A stretch of 64,000 nucleotides of DNA from Escherichia coli (GTDB taxonomy: Bacteria > Pseudomonadota > Gammaproteobacteria > Enterobacterales > Enterobacteriaceae). The position numbers and the translations under genes were made by a program. The stretch lies in NCBI RefSeq assembly GCF_050320075.1, contig NZ_CP190018.1; one strand, given 5' to 3'. Below the pieces are notes generated by a model, which did not search any database, was not told where the DNA came from, and saw only the letters and a list, made by a program, of their open reading frames with translations. Below, one piece after another: positions 37,648 to 43,253 of the stretch (positions within the stretch are counted from its first letter, which is position 1; each line of letters starts with the position of its first letter).

Positions 37648-37995
37648 GTGCGATTCGTGGCTAAATCCCCCGCAGAACGCAAAGCCGCGCAGCGCGCTCG
37701 GCAGTCCGCCGCCGGTGAGCGCAAAATTGAACTGGTGCTGGATAAGCAGGAGCAGGAAATGCTGGAGCGTAACTGTGCCACGCGTCGCCCCGGGCGTGCG
37801 CCTTACGAATTTGGGGAGTATATAGCGTTACTGATCCGCCAGGATGATGCACGCGTGCGCGGGCGTATAAAATCGATTAGCAGAAAACGTTGCGGTAAGT
37901 GCGGCGAGAAAGTTCCCGTTAATTCATGCCCGTGTAATGGTGACTCGCAATGCTGGGTGACTAAAGGCTGGCATGAAACGAAATTAATAGTGTGA
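37648..37995 (+). CDS. zinc-finger protein immediately upstream of the terminase genes (candidate late regulator)
   Basis: 115-aa basic protein with cysteine cluster CGKCGEKVPVNSCPCNGDSQC; stop codon lies inside a GTGACATGTCAC palindrome. Confidence 0.45.
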   Translation: MRFVAKSPAERKAAQRARQSAAGERKIELVLDKQEQEMLERNCATRRPGRAPYEFGEYIALLIRQDDARVRGRIKSISRKRCGKCGEKVPVNSCPCNGDSQCWVTKGWHETKLIV

Positions 37996-38044
37996 CATGT
38001 CACGAGTAGATTATGCATGATGAATTTGATGGGTTTTGAATACT

Positions 38045-38070
38045 GCCGCCAACTATGGCGGCTTTATTTT
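38045..38070 (+). terminator. intrinsic terminator between the early region and the terminase genes
   Basis: Hairpin gccgccaactatggcggc followed by tttatttt. Confidence 0.55.
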
Positions 38071-38113
38071 GCATGGTACTATTACCACAACGGTAACAAT
38101 TACCATGGTGGTT

Positions 38114-38710
38114 ATGATGCCTGCTGAACCTAAAACCTATAAACGCAAATCAACGCAATTTAAGCCACTAACCGCAATGCAGGAGGCTTATTGCCAGTCA
38201 TACATCAAAACGCCTGAAAACCAGACTCAGGCAGCGATTAACGCAGGATTCTCCCCAAATACAGCGGCAGTTAAAGCCAGTGTCATGATGCGCGATGAAC
38301 GCATTCAAAAACGGATTGCCGAGTTGATGGAGGAGCGCAACAAACGAATGCGCGTCAGTGCCGATTACGTTCTCATGCGCCTGGTGGAGATCGACCAGAT
38401 GGACGTGATTGATATCCTCAATGACGATGGGAGCCTTAAGCCAATCCGCGAGTGGCCGAAAATCTGGCGCACTACGCTTAGTGGCTTTGATCTGTCATCG
38501 ACCATCATGAACATGAACGAGGATTCGATAGAGACAATTCTCAAAAAAATTAAATGGCCTGACAAGGTGAAGAACCTCGAACTGATTGGTAAGCACGTCG
38601 ACGTCAATGCATTCAAAGAACGCCTGGATGTTAATGTGAATGTGACAATTGCTGATCGCATAGCGGCAGCCAGGAAGCGACTCAAAGAACGTCAGGATGG
38701 TAATCAGTGA
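38114..38710 (+). CDS. terminase small subunit
   Basis: ORF 38036-38710; start placed at ATG 38114/38117 (MPAEPKTYKRKS...); directly upstream of, and overlapping, the large terminase gene (GTGA). Confidence 0.6.
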   Translation: MMPAEPKTYKRKSTQFKPLTAMQEAYCQSYIKTPENQTQAAINAGFSPNTAAVKASVMMRDERIQKRIAELMEERNKRMRVSADYVLMRLVEIDQMDVIDILNDDGSLKPIREWPKIWRTTLSGFDLSSTIMNMNEDSIETILKKIKWPDKVKNLELIGKHVDVNAFKERLDVNVNVTIADRIAAARKRLKERQDGNQ

Positions 38711-40182
38711 CAGATACAGCGTTATCTCCTGAAGAGCAGTTGATCGAGGATATTGCAGGGTTCACTCACGATCCGCTTGGCTATGCCCTCTATGCGTTCC
38801 CGTGGGGGGAAGAGGGGACTGAACTGGCACATGCTACCGGCCCACGTCAGTGGCAGGCTGATGCGTTCCGAGAGATACGTGATCACCTGCAGAATCCAGA
38901 GACGCGCTATCAGCCGCTTATGCTGGCACGCGCTTCTGGTCACGGTATTGGTAAATCCGCATTCATCTCAATGCTGATCAACTGGGGCATGTCCACTTGC
39001 GAGGATTGTAAGGTCGTGGTGACCGCCAACACCGACAACCAGCTACGAACGAAGACCTGGCCGGAAATTATCAAGTGGTCGAACCTTGCTATCACGAAAG
39101 ACTGGTTTACCTGTACCGCTACTGCGATGTACAGCAATGATCCTGGGCACGACAAGCGGTGGCGAGCTGACGCAATCCCCTGGTCTGAGCACAACACTGA
39201 GGCATTCGCCGGACTACACAACGAGCGCAAACGCATCATCGTGGTATTCGATGAAGCGTCGAACATTGCGGATCTGGTGTGGGAAGTTGCTGAGGGTGCG
39301 CTTACGGACGAAGACACTGAGATTATCTGGGTGGCGTTCGGAAACCCTACACGTAATACCGGGCGTTTTCGCGAATGTTTCCGCAAATACAAACACCGCT
39401 GGAAAACTGCGCAGATTGACAGCCGGACGGTGGAAGGTACTAACAAACAGCAGTTGCAGAAATGGGTTGATGACTACGGGGAAGACAGCGACTTCGTTAA
39501 AATCCGTGTGCGCGGCATATTCCCTGATGCATCTGAATTGCAGTTTATCCCTACCGGTCTTACTGATGAGGCAATGAAACGGGTGGTAACCGCTGCGCAG
39601 GTTGCACATGCTCCGGTGATAATCGGCGTTGACCCGGCATACTCCGGAGTTGATGACGCTGTGATATACCTGCGGCAGGGGCTGCACAGTAAGGTGCTGT
39701 GGACTGGCAACAAGACCACTGACGATCTGATAATGGCGAAGCGTATCGCTGACTTTGAAGACCAGTACCAGGCTGACGCAGTGTTCATCGACTTCGGTTA
39801 CGGAACTGGTCTGAAGTCAATCGGTGACGGCTGGGGTCGTACATGGCAACTTGTTCCGTTCGGTGGCGCGTCTACTGACCCGCAGATGCTCAACAAGCGT
39901 GGGGAGATGTTCAACTCATGCAAGACATGGCTGAGGCTGGGCGGGATGCTGGATGACCAGGAAACAGCAGACGACCTGTCGACGGCAGAGTACAAAGTTC
40001 GCGTGGACGGTAAAATCGTTATCGAACCGAAGGAAGATATCAAGGAGCGGCTTGGGCGTTCGCCGGGTAAAGGCGATGCGCTACTGCTGACGTTTGCGTT
40101 CCCTGTGTCTAAGCGTCTGCGAATTCCCGGGCAGCAGAACCAGCAAGGCAAGGCCATTACAGATTACGATCCCTATGCTTAA
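38707..40182 (+). CDS. terminase large subunit
   Basis: 491-aa ORF with a Walker A-like ATPase region and C-terminal nuclease-like region. Confidence 0.85.
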   Translation: MTDTALSPEEQLIEDIAGFTHDPLGYALYAFPWGEEGTELAHATGPRQWQADAFREIRDHLQNPETRYQPLMLARASGHGIGKSAFISMLINWGMSTCEDCKVVVTANTDNQLRTKTWPEIIKWSNLAITKDWFTCTATAMYSNDPGHDKRWRADAIPWSEHNTEAFAGLHNERKRIIVVFDEASNIADLVWEVAEGALTDEDTEIIWVAFGNPTRNTGRFRECFRKYKHRWKTAQIDSRTVEGTNKQQLQKWVDDYGEDSDFVKIRVRGIFPDASELQFIPTGLTDEAMKRVVTAAQVAHAPVIIGVDPAYSGVDDAVIYLRQGLHSKVLWTGNKTTDDLIMAKRIADFEDQYQADAVFIDFGYGTGLKSIGDGWGRTWQLVPFGGASTDPQMLNKRGEMFNSCKTWLRLGGMLDDQETADDLSTAEYKVRVDGKIVIEPKEDIKERLGRSPGKGDALLLTFAFPVSKRLRIPGQQNQQGKAITDYDPYA

Positions 40183-40272
40183 TCCGTTAGCGGGGATAAT
40201 GACGGAGATATCCTCTGGTGAGGATAAAACAAAGCCAGCTCATCGGCTGGCTGTTTGTGACATGTCACGGTG

Positions 40273-40644
40273 TTATTGCTCGCTTAACTTCTGCTTCAGC
40301 AAGTAACCTTCAAGCATCCAGATTTTGTTTACAGCATTCTGCCGGGCAATCTTCCGACCAATTTCCGCATCAAAGTTTTCCGGGCTTGCACAGGCGCTCT
40401 CTCCGGTGACGGTGAAGCCGTTGCGCAGCACCAGAACGCAGAACGTCAGCAGAGAAAGTGATTCGTGCGGCTGGTAGTTTACCTCTCCGCCAGTATGTTT
40501 CGCTTTTATGGCTACGCCAAAGACACCATCTTCTGCTGTGAAATATGCCTCCTGAGCAATAATGCTCTCGATATGGTCTGGCGTAACGCGCGGCGCGGCT
40601 AAACCTTTAGCCTGAATTTCAGATTCAATGTCTTTGTCACTCAT
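40273..40644 (-). CDS. hypothetical phage protein
   Basis: 123-aa minus-strand ORF inserted between terminase and portal genes; AAGGTGA SD upstream. Confidence 0.45.
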   Translation of the reverse strand: MSDKDIESEIQAKGLAAPRVTPDHIESIIAQEAYFTAEDGVFGVAIKAKHTGGEVNYQPHESLSLLTFCVLVLRNGFTVTGESACASPENFDAEIGRKIARQNAVNKIWMLEGYLLKQKLSEQ

Positions 40645-40847
40645 AGTCTAATCTCACCTTAAAAAAATGCCCGGCGAACCGGGCGAACTGGAAGCAATGA
40701 GTTATGCCTTCCGTGGCTGTACTGGTTTACAGCATGAAGTCATCGCAATGGCGTCCTGCTGTAAAAAGGGCGGTGATAGTCCTTCAAGGGAAACCATCAC
40801 CGCCAAGCACCTGGAACTTCTGGCATCACGGTCCTTAGGCGTGATTC

Positions 40848-40924
40848 TGGCGTGGCATGCAGGATTCGAACCTGCGACCAACCGCTTAGAAGGCGGTTGC
40901 TCTGTCCAACTGAGCTAATGCCAC
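40848..40924 (-). tRNA. tRNA-Arg (anticodon UCU), phage-encoded
   Basis: Manual cloverleaf: acceptor GTGGCAT/ATGCCAC, D-arm GCTC/GAGC, anticodon stem ACCGC/GCGGT, loop CTTCTAA (UCU), T-arm GCAGG-TTCGAAT-CCTGC, discriminator G, CCA encoded; closely resembles host argU. Confidence 0.85.
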
Positions 40925-41352
40925 AACGCTGAGAGCACTTAGCCTGTTAAGTGCGCCACACTTTGTCGCAGCTCCATAAATGCTCTCATCGTTGTACCCT
41001 CGTCTCTTCCGAGGCGTCACACCGAATCGCCGGGATGGTGAATCCCCGTGCGCGGAATAAAACCGCTCGACTTGCACATTCCGGCTACCTGGTTCGTTTG
41101 CCCGAGCAAGGGAGGGTGCCCCTTAAACGTATCCAGACCGCTATCGGCGCATGTGCCATACGCCGTACTGCTCAAAATAAAAGCTCACTCCACCTGTTCA
41201 ATTTAACGACAAGCCAGTCAGGTTAATAACCGGAATGAACCATTTACTTACCTGAAAGGTAATAATTCGTGCGTTAAATGTCAACTACCTACGATAAATA
41301 AATCATATGTGGTTAAATTGGTAATAATTTAATTGCGTACGGAGTCATTGAT

Positions 41353-41559
41353 ATGTGCATGGGTAGCTCACCATCAGTGCCTGCAACACCAGAAGTTCAG
41401 GCAGCACCACAGGAGCAGGATGCCGCCGTTGTTGATGCCCGCGACGAAGAAACACGTCGCCGTCGCGCTGCTGCTGGTCGTAGTTCTACGCTGCTTACCG
41501 GTTCTCAGGGCGACACATCAACTGCTAATACCAGCGGTAAAACGCTGCTTGGTCAGTAA
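41353..41559 (+). CDS. hypothetical small protein
   Basis: 68-aa ORF just upstream of the portal gene with the same SD context (ggagtcattga-ATG) as the portal gene. Confidence 0.4.
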   Translation: MCMGSSPSVPATPEVQAAPQEQDAAVVDARDEETRRRRAAAGRSSTLLTGSQGDTSTANTSGKTLLGQ

Positions 41560-41573
41560 CCGGAGTCATTGAA

Positions 41574-43253
41574 ATGGCGGAAACAACTAAAGAGCGATTG
41601 AGCAAACAGTTCGCACAACTTGAAAGCGAGCGTCAGTCGTTCGAGCCGCACTGGCGCGAGTTGAGTGATTACATCAACCCGCGTGGTTCCCGCTTTCTGA
41701 CTTCTGAGGCCAACCGTAACGATCGGCGCAATACACACATTATTGATTCGACCGGGACTATGGCGGCGCGCACTCTCGCCAGCGGCATGATGTCAGGCAT
41801 CACAAGCCCCGCGCGTCCGTGGTTTCGCCTGGCTACGCCAGATCCTGAAATGATGGATTATGGCCCTGTTAAGTTGTGGCTTGAGGCGGTGCAGAACCGC
41901 ATGAACGATATGTTCAATAAGTCGAATCTCTATCAGTCGCTGCCGCAGTTATACGGAAGCCTCGGCACATACAGCACCGGTGCAATGGCGGTACTGGAGG
42001 ATGATGAGGACATCATTCGCACAATGCCATTCCCGATAGGCAGTTACTACCTGGCTAACTCACCTCGTGGCAGTGTTGACACCTGTTTTCGCAAGTTCTC
42101 TATGACTGTTCGTCAGCTTGTTCAGGAGTTCGGGCTAAATAACGTCAGCGAATCCGTAAAAAGCATGTGGGAAAGCGGCATCTACGAGAAGTGGATTGAC
42201 GTGATGCATTCGGTTTACCCGAACATTGACCGCGATACATCGAAGCTGGATAGCAAGAACAAGCCATTCAAATCGGTTTATTACGAGGTTGGTGGCGATA
42301 ACGACAAGTTGTTGCGTGAGTCCGGATTCGATGAGTTTCCAATTATGGCTCCGCGCTGGGAAGTTAACGGTGAAGATGTTTATGGATCATCATGCCCGGG
42401 CATGCTGGCGCTTGGACCTGTTAAGGCATTGCAGCTTCTCCAGAAGCGCAAGTCGCAGTTGATTGATAAAGCCACCAATCCGCCGATGGTTGCTCCGACT
42501 TCCCTCAAGAATCAGCGCGCCTCCCTTCTTCCTGGCGACATCACGTATATCGATCAGATTACTGGTCAGGATGGCTTCAGGCCTGCTTATCTGGTTAACC
42601 CCAGTACAGCAGATTTGGTGGCAGACATTCAGGACACTCGTCAAATCATTAACAGCGCCTACTTTGTCGATCTGTTCATGATGTTGCAGAACATCAATAC
42701 CCGCTCGATGCCTGTTGAAGCGGTGATCGAAATGAAAGAAGAAAAACTTCTGATGTTGGGGCCGGTTCTGGAGCGTCTGAACGACGAATGTCTTAATCCT
42801 CTCATTGACCGCGCTTTCTCGATGATGGTGCGTAAAAACATGCTGCCGCCACCGCCTGACGCGATGGAAGGCATGCCCCTGAAGGTCGAATACATTTCCG
42901 TCATGGCTCAGGCGCAGAAGTCTATCGGCCTGTCCAGTCTGGCGTCCACGGTTAACTTCATTGGTCAACTTGCGCAAGCGAAACCAGAAGCTCTCGACAA
43001 ACTCAACGTTGATCAGGCGATCGATGCATTCGCTGATATGTCCGGAGTGTCTCCAACCGTCATTGTTCCGCAGGAACAGGTTGAGCAGGCTCGCCAGCAA
43101 CGGGCACAGCAGCAACAGCAGCAACAAATGATGGCGATGGGGATGGCGGCGGCACAGGGGGCCAAGACGCTAAGCGAAGCTAAAACTTCGGATCCGAGTG
43201 TTTTGTCAGCTATGGCGAATGCAGTTAGTGGTCAGGGTGGGCAATCACAATGA
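41574..43253 (+). CDS. portal protein
   Basis: 559-aa ORF downstream of the large terminase and upstream of scaffold and capsid; size and Q-rich C-terminal tail typical of podovirus portals. Confidence 0.7.
   Translation: MAETTKERLSKQFAQLESERQSFEPHWRELSDYINPRGSRFLTSEANRNDRRNTHIIDSTGTMAARTLASGMMSGITSPARPWFRLATPDPEMMDYGPVKLWLEAVQNRMNDMFNKSNLYQSLPQLYGSLGTYSTGAMAVLEDDEDIIRTMPFPIGSYYLANSPRGSVDTCFRKFSMTVRQLVQEFGLNNVSESVKSMWESGIYEKWIDVMHSVYPNIDRDTSKLDSKNKPFKSVYYEVGGDNDKLLRESGFDEFPIMAPRWEVNGEDVYGSSCPGMLALGPVKALQLLQKRKSQLIDKATNPPMVAPTSLKNQRASLLPGDITYIDQITGQDGFRPAYLVNPSTADLVADIQDTRQIINSAYFVDLFMMLQNINTRSMPVEAVIEMKEEKLLMLGPVLERLNDECLNPLIDRAFSMMVRKNMLPPPPDAMEGMPLKVEYISVMAQAQKSIGLSSLASTVNFIGQLAQAKPEALDKLNVDQAIDAFADMSGVSPTVIVPQEQVEQARQQRAQQQQQQQMMAMGMAAAQGAKTLSEAKTSDPSVLSAMANAVSGQGGQSQ

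Follow-up and report, generated by a model that had tools for sequence, protein, structure and literature searches.

The initiation region of the portal gene in this Escherichia coli prophage appears to have been derived from that of the small gene that precedes it. Comparison with related phages suggests that one short templated copy of the initiation region of a 68-aa open reading frame (ORF) was placed into the gap in front of the portal gene and was retained there as a working ribosome-binding site (RBS), and this is, with moderate confidence, the best explanation of the direct repeat found at the two gene starts.

The two copies of the repeat, CGGAGTCATTGATATG in front of the small ORF (copy 1) and CGGAGTCATTGAAATG in front of the portal gene (copy 2), were established by reading of the sequence, by pattern search and by a repeat search (family D1: 16 nt, 94% identity, spacing 221). 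They consist of a run of 12 identical nucleotides (cGGAGTCATTGA) followed by W and ATG, and are located 221 nt apart (Table 1). The repeat reported in the first-pass annotation is hereby confirmed, with the identical run including one base (the C before GGAG) beyond what was listed there. When the window (i.e. the whole analysed stretch of 64,000 nucleotides) was scanned allowing up to two mismatches, only these two sites were detected, compared to an expectation of 0.29, and one of 100 shuffled sequences reached two; no third or inverted copy of the 12-mer was present in the window at this threshold. Since every gene start is expected to contain GGAG and ATG, the informative part of the repeat is represented by the eight additional bases in register (C and TCATTGA), whose agreement by chance would be expected at approximately 4^-8 (1.5e-5) per gene pair, or ~8e-4 over 54 adjacent pairs. 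When the annotated gene starts of phiV10 were compared pairwise (1,485 pairs), the small ORF and the portal gene had the longest in-register run (12 nt). The next longest runs measured 10, 9 and 9 nt; of these, two are extended Shine-Dalgarno (SD) sequences (GGAGGTGAGT, AAAGGAGG-type), while the third (GCCGACTTG, p34/p48) is not. As other gene starts share runs of 9-10 nt, the 12-nt run heads a distribution and does not stand far outside it. On these estimates the repeat exceeds chance expectation and is unlikely to be a coincidence.

The 68-aa protein matches phrog_831 over its full length (E 2.4e-36), with its residues 1-68 aligned to positions 3-70 of the 70-position profile. Its family comprises 1,381 representatives at 50% clustering and is characterised by an invariant N-terminal Met-Cys, a Pro-rich segment, RRRR, STxLTG and a C-terminal KTLLGQ, with M1 and C2 being invariant in 40 diverse members aligned from residue 1. 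Pfam returned no match for the 68-aa protein, no solved structure with a member of its family was found, and a search of a limited literature collection returned nothing on epsilon15 gp3 or on the start-site repeat. The ORF is annotated everywhere as hypothetical. The portal protein matches PF12236 (Head-tail_con; E 5.6e-187, 622 bits versus a 27-bit cut-off), with residues 7-496 aligned to profile positions 2-488 of 489, and the portal of PDB entry 8ck0 (E 9.6e-178, matched from residue 2). Both belong to the head genes of a phiV10/epsilon15-type prophage. Both ATG codons are true starts, the protein N-termini being conserved from each.

Table 1. Features surrounding the repeated initiation region (positions in the window).
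Feature	Coordinates	Strand	Description
Conserved non-coding leader	41248..41339	+	Directly upstream of copy 1
Repeat copy 1, small-ORF initiation region	41340..41355	+	C; SD GGAG 41341-41344; spacer TCATTGAT 41345-41352; ATG 41353-41355
68-aa ORF (epsilon15 gp3 / phiV10p06, phrog_831)	41353..41559	+	First gene of head operon
Intercistronic gap, 14 nt	41560..41573	+	From small-ORF TAA stop (41557-41559) to portal ATG; encloses nearly all of copy 2
Repeat copy 2, portal initiation region	41561..41576	+	C; SD GGAG 41562-41565; spacer TCATTGAA 41566-41573; ATG 41574-41576
Portal (head-to-tail connector), 559 aa, T7 gp8-type	41574..43253	+	PF12236, phrog_332, PDB 8ck0

At both sites the GGAG core is separated from the ATG by 8 nt, as is typical of an SD-type initiation region, in which a purine-rich core able to pair with the anti-SD of 16S rRNA precedes the start codon by 5-10 nt; most phiV10 gene starts have GGAG-type cores at similar spacing, and the record of Enterobacter phage Tyrion annotates both sites as ribosome-binding sites. 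The two copies are probably ordinary SD-type initiation regions (GGAG, an 8-nt A/T-rich spacer and ATG) of adjacent, co-transcribed head genes, and resemble those of other adjacent cistrons in phage late operons in their GGAG position, the 14-nt gap and the RBS annotation in Tyrion. They differ from these in that neighbouring spacers are normally unrelated, whereas here 12 nt are identical in register. No significant local RNA structure was detected at either site (z -0.8 to +0.7), and site accessibility falls in the same range in lineages with and without the repeat. A putative ancestral coupling hairpin, in which the epsilon15 portal initiation region folds through pairing of the last small-ORF codons with the spacer, was considered and ruled out, as neither minimum free energy nor accessibility of the SD and start (0.28-0.66) separates repeat from non-repeat lineages (n=14). 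A search of Rfam at a permissive E-value returned only a tRNA-Arg and one below-threshold chance match, and no sigma-70 consensus promoter was found in 40100-41700. The leader upstream of copy 1 holds an inverted repeat (TTACCTGAAAGGTAAT, 41248-41263), GTCAA at 41280 and an invariant block (ATATGTGGTTAAATTGGTAATAATTTAA, 41305-41332), as well as a direct repeat, GGTAATAATT, found by repeat search. Its columns are invariant across six lineages whose coding identity is 76-85%, and the record of epsilon15 places IHF and repressor sites in this region; the presence of this conserved leader probably explains why the small-ORF initiation region is the conserved one. An overlapping 79-aa ORF in an alternative frame (41333-41572), which extends from repeat to repeat and ends at a TGA inside copy 2, was rejected as, of 20 lineages inspected, 17 (including Tyrion) have one to four stops in its frame, which is open only in BUCT554, L175 and L107.

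The distribution of the repeat among relatives indicates which of the two copies is the source. Across ~48 haplotypes, the in-register run between the small-ORF and portal initiation regions amounts to 11-12 nt in phiV10-type prophages and 13 nt in Tyrion, and to 1-4 nt in the ~45 haplotypes outside these two groups. At the small ORF, the context GGAG(T/C)(C/T)ATTG is shared by phiV10, Tyrion, epsilon15, SPN1S and the lineages L164/L165, the site being GGAGCTATTGCT in epsilon15/SPN1S and GGAGTCATTGAA in L164/L165, while the portal spacers of the latter phages (GGAGTAGGCAGAG in epsilon15/SPN1S and GGGATCGTC in L164/L165) are unrelated to this motif. The portal copy is found only in phiV10-type prophages and in their sister Tyrion. 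Since the motif is also present at the small ORF in lineages with an unrelated portal spacer, the portal gene acquired the context of the small ORF, and by this comparison copy 1 is the ancestral source and copy 2 the derived sequence. In neighbour-joining trees, whether built from the small ORF or from the portal 5' region, the window sequence and Tyrion are sisters (85% identity to each other, at most 81% to all others), and a single event thus suffices. Scanning of viral contigs for the derived portal context retrieved the phiV10 haplotype (116 of 120 stretches), three single-base variants and Tyrion, and a search of 100,044 species genomes retrieved one phiV10-type prophage; no further haplotypes were present in metagenome contigs (two scans). 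The derived state is accordingly represented by two independent haplotypes only, with the event placed at one node of a tree built from short sequences.

These comparisons establish that the repeat exists, how rare it is, where it occurs in the phylogeny and which copy is the source; the molecular mechanism of the copying, and its neutrality, we infer. In the common ancestor of the phiV10-type prophages and Tyrion, ~8-14 nt of the small-ORF initiation region would have been copied into the 14-nt gap located 221 nt downstream, replacing an unrelated, epsilon15-like spacer. The gap of epsilon15 is also 14 nt in length but differs in sequence (CGGAGTAGGCAGAG), its portal spacer TAGGCAGAG being the counterpart of the native portal spacer TCATTGAA. 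Conversion of the epsilon15-type CGGAGTAGGCAGAG to CCGGAGTCATTGAA requires a 1-nt shift and at least six substitutions, and its product equals the neighbouring site, which argues for a templated rather than a mutational origin. Template switching, short-tract ectopic conversion, or duplication followed by deletion is the likely route, and the copying may have been anchored by microhomologies that already existed at either end, namely ACGGAG(T) (left) and ATG (right). Since then the copy would have been retained for its function in ribosome binding, and how much of each protein is made relative to the other would be affected at most secondarily. Short-tract ectopic conversion and template switching correct quasi-repeats and homogenise short repeats in bacterial and phage genomes. 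The present case resembles such events in that a tract of ~8-14 nt corresponds to a donor sequence at a distance of 221 nt, is bounded by the above microhomologies and leaves the total gap length at 14 nt; it differs in that the event is deduced from phylogeny, with just two descendant haplotypes. Furthermore, position -2 differs in parallel between the groups (A/A in phiV10-type prophages, T/T in Tyrion), which hints that later exchange or selection for identity, and not one neutral event, may have shaped the copies. This is one mirrored site, and a chance parallel change within 14 positions has a probability of ~10-20% at the observed divergence by our rough estimate; the two copies disagree at positions -1 and -14, where no mirroring is seen, and in the single-nucleotide variant L202 the small-ORF copy alone is altered.

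Gp6.7 of phage T7 is a virion core protein, present in 12 copies on the dodecameric portal barrel, which is wrapped by its residues 2-15, and ejected at infection (PMC11784390), and epsilon15 possesses a T7-like core stack (PMC8954989). Gp6.7 (PF17570) and the 68-aa protein are both small (88 and 68 aa, respectively), start with Met-Cys followed by xS-PKxP, and have their genes upstream of a PF12236 portal gene in podoviruses that possess an internal core; the Met-Cys and ensuing S-PK-x-P, which form the portal-barrel-binding loop I of T7, were found in the 68-aa family. Profile-profile comparison of the two families by hhalign yielded a probability of 63.6% (E 6.8e-5) over columns 1-10 only, the invariant residues being M1, C2, P5, K6 and P10 in the gp6.7 family and M1 and C2 in the 68-aa family. 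In contrast, the C-terminal halves are unrelated (STxLTG...KTLLGQ in the 68-aa family versus GRKxLKV...IRKSAFGG in gp6.7), and genes 7, 7.3 and 7.7 intervene before gene 8 in T7. Phage T7 particles formed by 6.7 mutants are able to adsorb, yet their ejection is poor. Homology over the full length was not supported, as hhalign gave 2-5% against the single T7 sequence, with only approximately the first ten residues aligning. At the 25-bit cut-off, PF17570 (T7-like_gp67) matched neither the window protein nor 19 aligned family members, and two distant members of the 68-aa family scored 12.6 and 14.6 bits (overall range 0-15), below this cut-off.

It had been proposed in the first-pass annotation that the 68-aa ORF was inserted or duplicated using the initiation region of the portal gene, and the direct repeats do bracket the ORF exactly and in the same register, as short direct repeats do in the case of morons and other mobile ORFs of temperate phages. 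A recent insertion or duplication which brought or borrowed the portal initiation region and left flanking repeats is nevertheless highly improbable. At all loci inspected, a T7-type portal gene follows immediately after the small ORF (165 of 166 first loci, the sole exception being a contig that ends there, and all 24 later loci with gene calls), including the ~45 haplotypes without the repeat, and no close relative without the ORF was found. It is ancient, as the size of its family also attests, shows no similarity to the portal gene, carries the motif in its ancestral position and, unlike a moron, lies inside the head operon rather than with a promoter and terminator of its own. Additionally, a synthetic deletion-junction query was compared with the phage collection and 5,426 E. 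coli genomes, in neither of which an ORF-less junction was matched in one piece; 532 of these genomes carry the region, and among the matches listed all consisted of two pieces spanning 321 bp, two slightly better-scoring records representing the ordinary haplotype. Repeat-mediated deletion of the small ORF was rejected on the same two-piece matches. The universal presence of the ORF with divergent upstream regions in relatives, which the first-pass annotation had set out as refuting its proposal, does tell against insertion, yet pure coincidence, as concluded there, does not follow: that the initiation context was duplicated holds, whereas the proposed direction and cause are not supported, since it is at the small ORF that the shared motif is ancestral. 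The same spacer could have arisen at two neighbouring genes through independent point mutations, given ordinary selection for a good RBS, and such an origin would be consistent with the 9-10 nt runs between unrelated phiV10 gene starts, with exact 12-mer repeats being individually common in 64 kb, and with the repeat having no detectable structural or accessibility consequence. The comparative data make it unlikely, however, since the eight positions outside the SD lack complementarity to the anti-SD and are thus not explained by selection for ribosome binding, the chance estimates given above are low, other lineages never exceed 4 nt in register, and the match is kept, and is 1 nt longer, in the 85%-identical Tyrion. 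That the 12-mer serves as an operator for a translational repressor or small RNA governing both genes is equally far-fetched as recent insertion; identical sites do coincide with the SD sequences of two genes linked in function, but the absence of further copies in the window at up to two mismatches, the lack of conserved structure or of any Rfam match but a tRNA, and the absence of the portal copy from almost all relatives argue against it.

The first-pass annotation alternatively suggested that both genes are co-regulated at the translational level, which is plausible by analogy because the small protein shares its N-terminal MCxSPKxP with the portal-barrel-binding gp6.7. Under such a scheme, identical initiation regions would be maintained, by selection or repeated conversion, for matched synthesis of two proteins assembled 1:1, at 12 each per virion as for T7 gp6.7. 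The MC(F/M/L)xSPKxP start common to both families, the T7 gp8-type portal and the core stack of epsilon15 are in agreement with this, as are the constant adjacency of the gene pair and its 4-nt overlap in two of three distant lineages, a 4-nt gene overlap being typical of translational coupling. The parallel change at -2 and an 11-nt core with no changes at 22 sites between phiV10-type prophages and Tyrion, despite ~15% divergence of the flanks, point in the same direction. Conversely, the unrelated initiation regions of the ~45 other haplotypes imply that identity is not needed for the partnership, and co-regulation as a general requirement is weakened since nearly all relatives have dissimilar sites. 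The covariation concerns one site, with the unmirrored differences and the one-sided change in L202 opposing it; equal initiation is not guaranteed, as the downstream codons differ and the portal site lies 14 nt past a stop codon; and the similarity to gp6.7 is confined to ~10 residues of a family for which no structure is solved. Matched synthesis as the reason for the repeat consequently appears doubtful, and it is quite unlikely that recurrent short conversion keeps the two regions alike so as to equalise the portal and a gp6.7-like barrel partner (12:12), with phrog_831 as the gp6.7 counterpart. If true, these proposals would represent stoichiometry tuning by a duplicated ribosome-binding site, and would make the phrog_831 family, encoded upstream of T7-type portals, the epsilon15-group counterpart of the T7 core protein.

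With a single templated copy as the preferred reading, the repeat is a real but minor evolutionary quirk, i.e. an ordinary pair of ribosome-binding sites of which one would be a lineage-specific copy of the other. It would illustrate, cleanly and on a small scale, that an intercistronic region can be rewritten by templated copying of very short tracts, and it cautions that flanking direct repeats by themselves are no evidence of gene insertion. Furthermore, the match of the Met-Cys...PKxP segment to the portal-binding loop of T7 gp6.7 leads to a hypothesis on the function of epsilon15 gp3 and related proteins that can be tested.

The initiation region of the small 68-aa ORF recurs 221 nt downstream at the start of the portal gene (Table); in each copy a Shine-Dalgarno core, GGAG, is followed by an 8-nt spacer and a start codon. 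The repeated sequence reported in the first-pass annotation was found at both positions, extending one base further to the left than listed. A search of both strands of the 64-kb window, allowing up to two mismatches, revealed no third copy. In shuffled sequence 0.29 matches were expected, and two matches were reached in 1 of 100 shuffles (two or fewer mismatches). As GGAG and ATG are usual at gene starts, the informative part of the repeat is the eight further in-register identities, whose chance occurrence is approximately 1.5e-5 per gene pair. The annotated gene starts of phiV10 form 1,485 pairs, of which only 54, including this one, are adjacent, and the 12-nt in-register run is the longest of all; the next-longest runs measure 10, 9 and 9 nt, two being extended Shine-Dalgarno sequences while the third, GCCGACTTG (p34/p48), is not. 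The repeat is thus unlikely to be due to chance.

Features of the head operon region and its surroundings (window positions)
Feature	Position	Strand	Evidence or remark
ORF just 5' of terminase genes	37648-37995		counterpart of phiV10p55 'transcriptional regulator'; Pfam search without match
Small and large terminase genes	38036-40182	+	gene calls
Large terminase subunit	38707-40182		PHROG 2 (terminase large subunit), phrog_5902; no Pfam-A match at E<=0.01
N4-gp49/Sf6-gp66-family gene	between terminase genes and leader	-	gene calls
PhiV10p04 (83-aa hypothetical ORF)	40667-40918	+	phiV10 record
tRNA-Arg(TCT)	40848-40924	-	ARAGORN, Rfam (73 bits)
Non-coding leader, ~430 nt	directly before small ORF	+	local gene order
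Inverted repeat TTACCTGAAAGGTAAT	41248-41263		in leader; IHF and 'repressor' sites annotated there in epsilon15 record
GTCAA	41280		in leader
Invariant block ATATGTGGTTAAATTGGTAATAATTTAA	41305-41332		in leader
Copy 1, CGGAGTCATTGATATG	41340-41355		small-ORF initiation region
Small ORF, 68 aa (epsilon15 gp3 / phiV10p06)	41353-41559	+	phrog_831, E 2.4e-36
Copy 2, CGGAGTCATTGAAATG	41561-41576		portal initiation region
Portal gene	41574-43253	+	PF12236, 622 bits
Bbp19-like, scaffold/protease-like and major capsid genes	after portal gene	+	gene order

The prophage is of the phiV10/epsilon15 type (Uetakevirus), and the 651 bp around the repeat share 98.6% identity with Escherichia phage phiV10, 85.5% with Enterobacter phage Tyrion and approximately 78% with Salmonella phage epsilon15. 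The gene order identifies the 68-aa ORF, whose product has no Pfam match, as the first gene of the head operon, separated from the portal gene by 14 nt. The large terminase subunit belongs to a divergent family that is poorly covered by Pfam. The tRNA gene is not listed at the corresponding position of the phiV10 reference record, which instead carries PhiV10p04 on the opposite strand; this ORF overlaps the tRNA by approximately 70 nt and is probably a spurious CDS call.

Both initiation regions were compared in six annotated phages and in 160 IMG/VR loci retrieved with small-protein profiles, as well as in 16 contigs with intermediate homologues and three distant family members. Of the first 166 loci, 165 have the small ORF upstream of the portal gene, the sole exception being truncated at a contig end; the 24 loci with gene calls that were added afterwards all show this arrangement. 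Its presence across relatives, including lineages that lack the repeat, contradicts the initial proposal that it was inserted or duplicated using the portal initiation region. Furthermore, clustering of the family at 50% leaves 1,381 representatives, most of them 63-75 aa long and aligned from residue 1, and its linkage to the PF12236 portal persists at 45-55% identity. A synthetic junction query, representing the product expected from recombination between the two copies, was not matched in one piece anywhere in the phage collection or among 5,426 complete E. coli genomes, including the 532 that contain the region. The two genes display a 4-nt, ATGA-type overlap at two of the three distant loci (small ORF 840-1040 and portal 1037-2701 in L311; 482-685 and 682-2355 in L308), whereas enterobacterial lineages have a 9-14-nt gap and a separate Shine-Dalgarno sequence, indicating that the mode of expression linkage changed during evolution. 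A Mor-family transcription activator gene (PF08765, 72-410) lies immediately upstream of the pair in L308, an SRR12245801 contig, a hint as to the activation of the head operon in that lineage.

Among approximately 48 distinct haplotypes, an in-register run of 11-13 nt was observed only in phiV10-type prophages and Tyrion, all others displaying 1-4 nt. Epsilon15 and SPN1S carry GGAGCTATTGCT at the small ORF versus GGAGTAGGCAGAG at the portal, L164/L165 carry GGAGTCATTGAA versus GGGATCGTC, and the two sites are unrelated in Klebsiella, Enterobacter, Morganella-type and other lineages. By this comparison, the shared motif belongs to the small ORF and not to the portal gene. Neighbour-joining trees of the small ORF and of the 5'-most 1.2 kb of the portal gene both place the window and Tyrion as sisters, and one event in their common ancestor explains the distribution of the repeat. 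When viral contigs were scanned for the derived portal context, 116 of 120 stretches represented the phiV10 haplotype, the remainder being three single-base variants thereof and Tyrion; 100,044 species-representative genomes yielded one match, in a phiV10-type prophage that shares 97.8% identity with the window. Two patterns written to exclude the phiV10 haplotype recovered no other haplotype from the metagenome collection.

The gaps preceding the portal gene in epsilon15-type (TAA-CGGAGTAGGCAGAG-ATG) and phiV10-type phages (TAA-CCGGAGTCATTGAA-ATG) are both 14 nt long, and turning the former into the latter takes a 1-nt shift plus six or more substitutions, the resulting sequence being that found 221 nt upstream. 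A short templated copy is the economical explanation and the most probable origin of the repeat. We infer that a short tract of the small ORF's initiation region, with the ACGGAG(T) and ATG common to both sites as its boundaries, was probably copied into this gap once, in the common ancestor of phiV10-type prophages and Tyrion, by template switching, short-tract conversion, or duplication followed by deletion. The repeat is a real, non-random and lineage-restricted duplication of a ribosome-binding region; the suggested duplication of the initiation context holds, albeit in the opposite direction, the portal gene having gained a copy of the small ORF's site.

Selection for identity was also considered. 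The 11-nt core is identical in both copies of the window and Tyrion against approximately 15% flanking divergence, and position -2 shifts in parallel (A/A versus T/T), which is suggestive, although it concerns one site only and, by our estimate, chance alone would produce such a parallel change somewhere among the 14 positions with a probability of roughly 10-20%. The copies differ from each other at positions -1 and -14. Moreover, rare single-base variants within the phiV10 lineage affect one copy alone: L202 (IMGVR_UViG_3300039322_000270) has GGAGTAATTG at the small ORF but not at the portal, and L031/L185 have CAGGAG in place of CCGGAG at the portal but not at the small ORF. Independent drift of the copies is thus possible within short periods; no further haplotypes bearing on concerted evolution were present in the collections searched. 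Both sites are functionally ordinary ribosome-binding sites, with no significant local structure at either and the same accessibility as in lineages without the repeat.

The leader, whose 3' end is copy 1, is unusually conserved, its segment 41248-41335 surpassing the flanking coding DNA in this respect. Its 28-column block, which includes the palindrome TTAAATT-GGTAAT-AATTTAA, shows no variation among six lineages with a coding DNA identity of only 76-85%, and two occurrences of GGTAATAATT lie 62 nt apart. A search for a sigma-70 consensus promoter found none. The leader is probably either the promoter or operator for activator-dependent late expression of the head operon or an RNA leader.

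The 68-aa protein is 'hypothetical' in all databases. Its family, encoded directly 5' of the PF12236 portal gene in every locus examined, features an invariant N-terminal Met-Cys, a Pro-rich segment, RRRR, STxLTG and a C-terminal KTLLGQ. T7 gp6.7 likewise begins with Met-Cys. Full-length similarity to the T7 gp6.7 sequence was not significant (hhalign 2.4% and 5.5%), and membership of PF17570 was not supported, the window protein giving no match and two distant family members scoring 12.6 and 14.6 bits, below the 25-bit cut-off. Profiles of 31 gp6.7 homologues and 40 diverse small-ORF family members aligned with 63.6% probability (E 6.8e-5) over the first 10 columns only, MC(F/M/L)xS-PKxP. In T7, residues 2-15 of gp6.7 wrap the portal barrel in 12 copies (PMC11784390), and it is with this portal-binding loop that the first 10 or so residues of the small protein align. 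No solved structure contains a small-ORF family member. Given the shared segment, the T7-like core stack on the epsilon15 portal (PMC8954989) and the T7 gp8-type portal in the window, it is a reasonable but unproven hypothesis, by analogy, that the small protein may work like gp6.7, binding the portal 1:1. If so, matched initiation regions would make biological sense. In most relatives the partnership operates with dissimilar sites or gene overlap. Overall, the repeat is a feature of an ordinary kind to which evolution has added a small twist.
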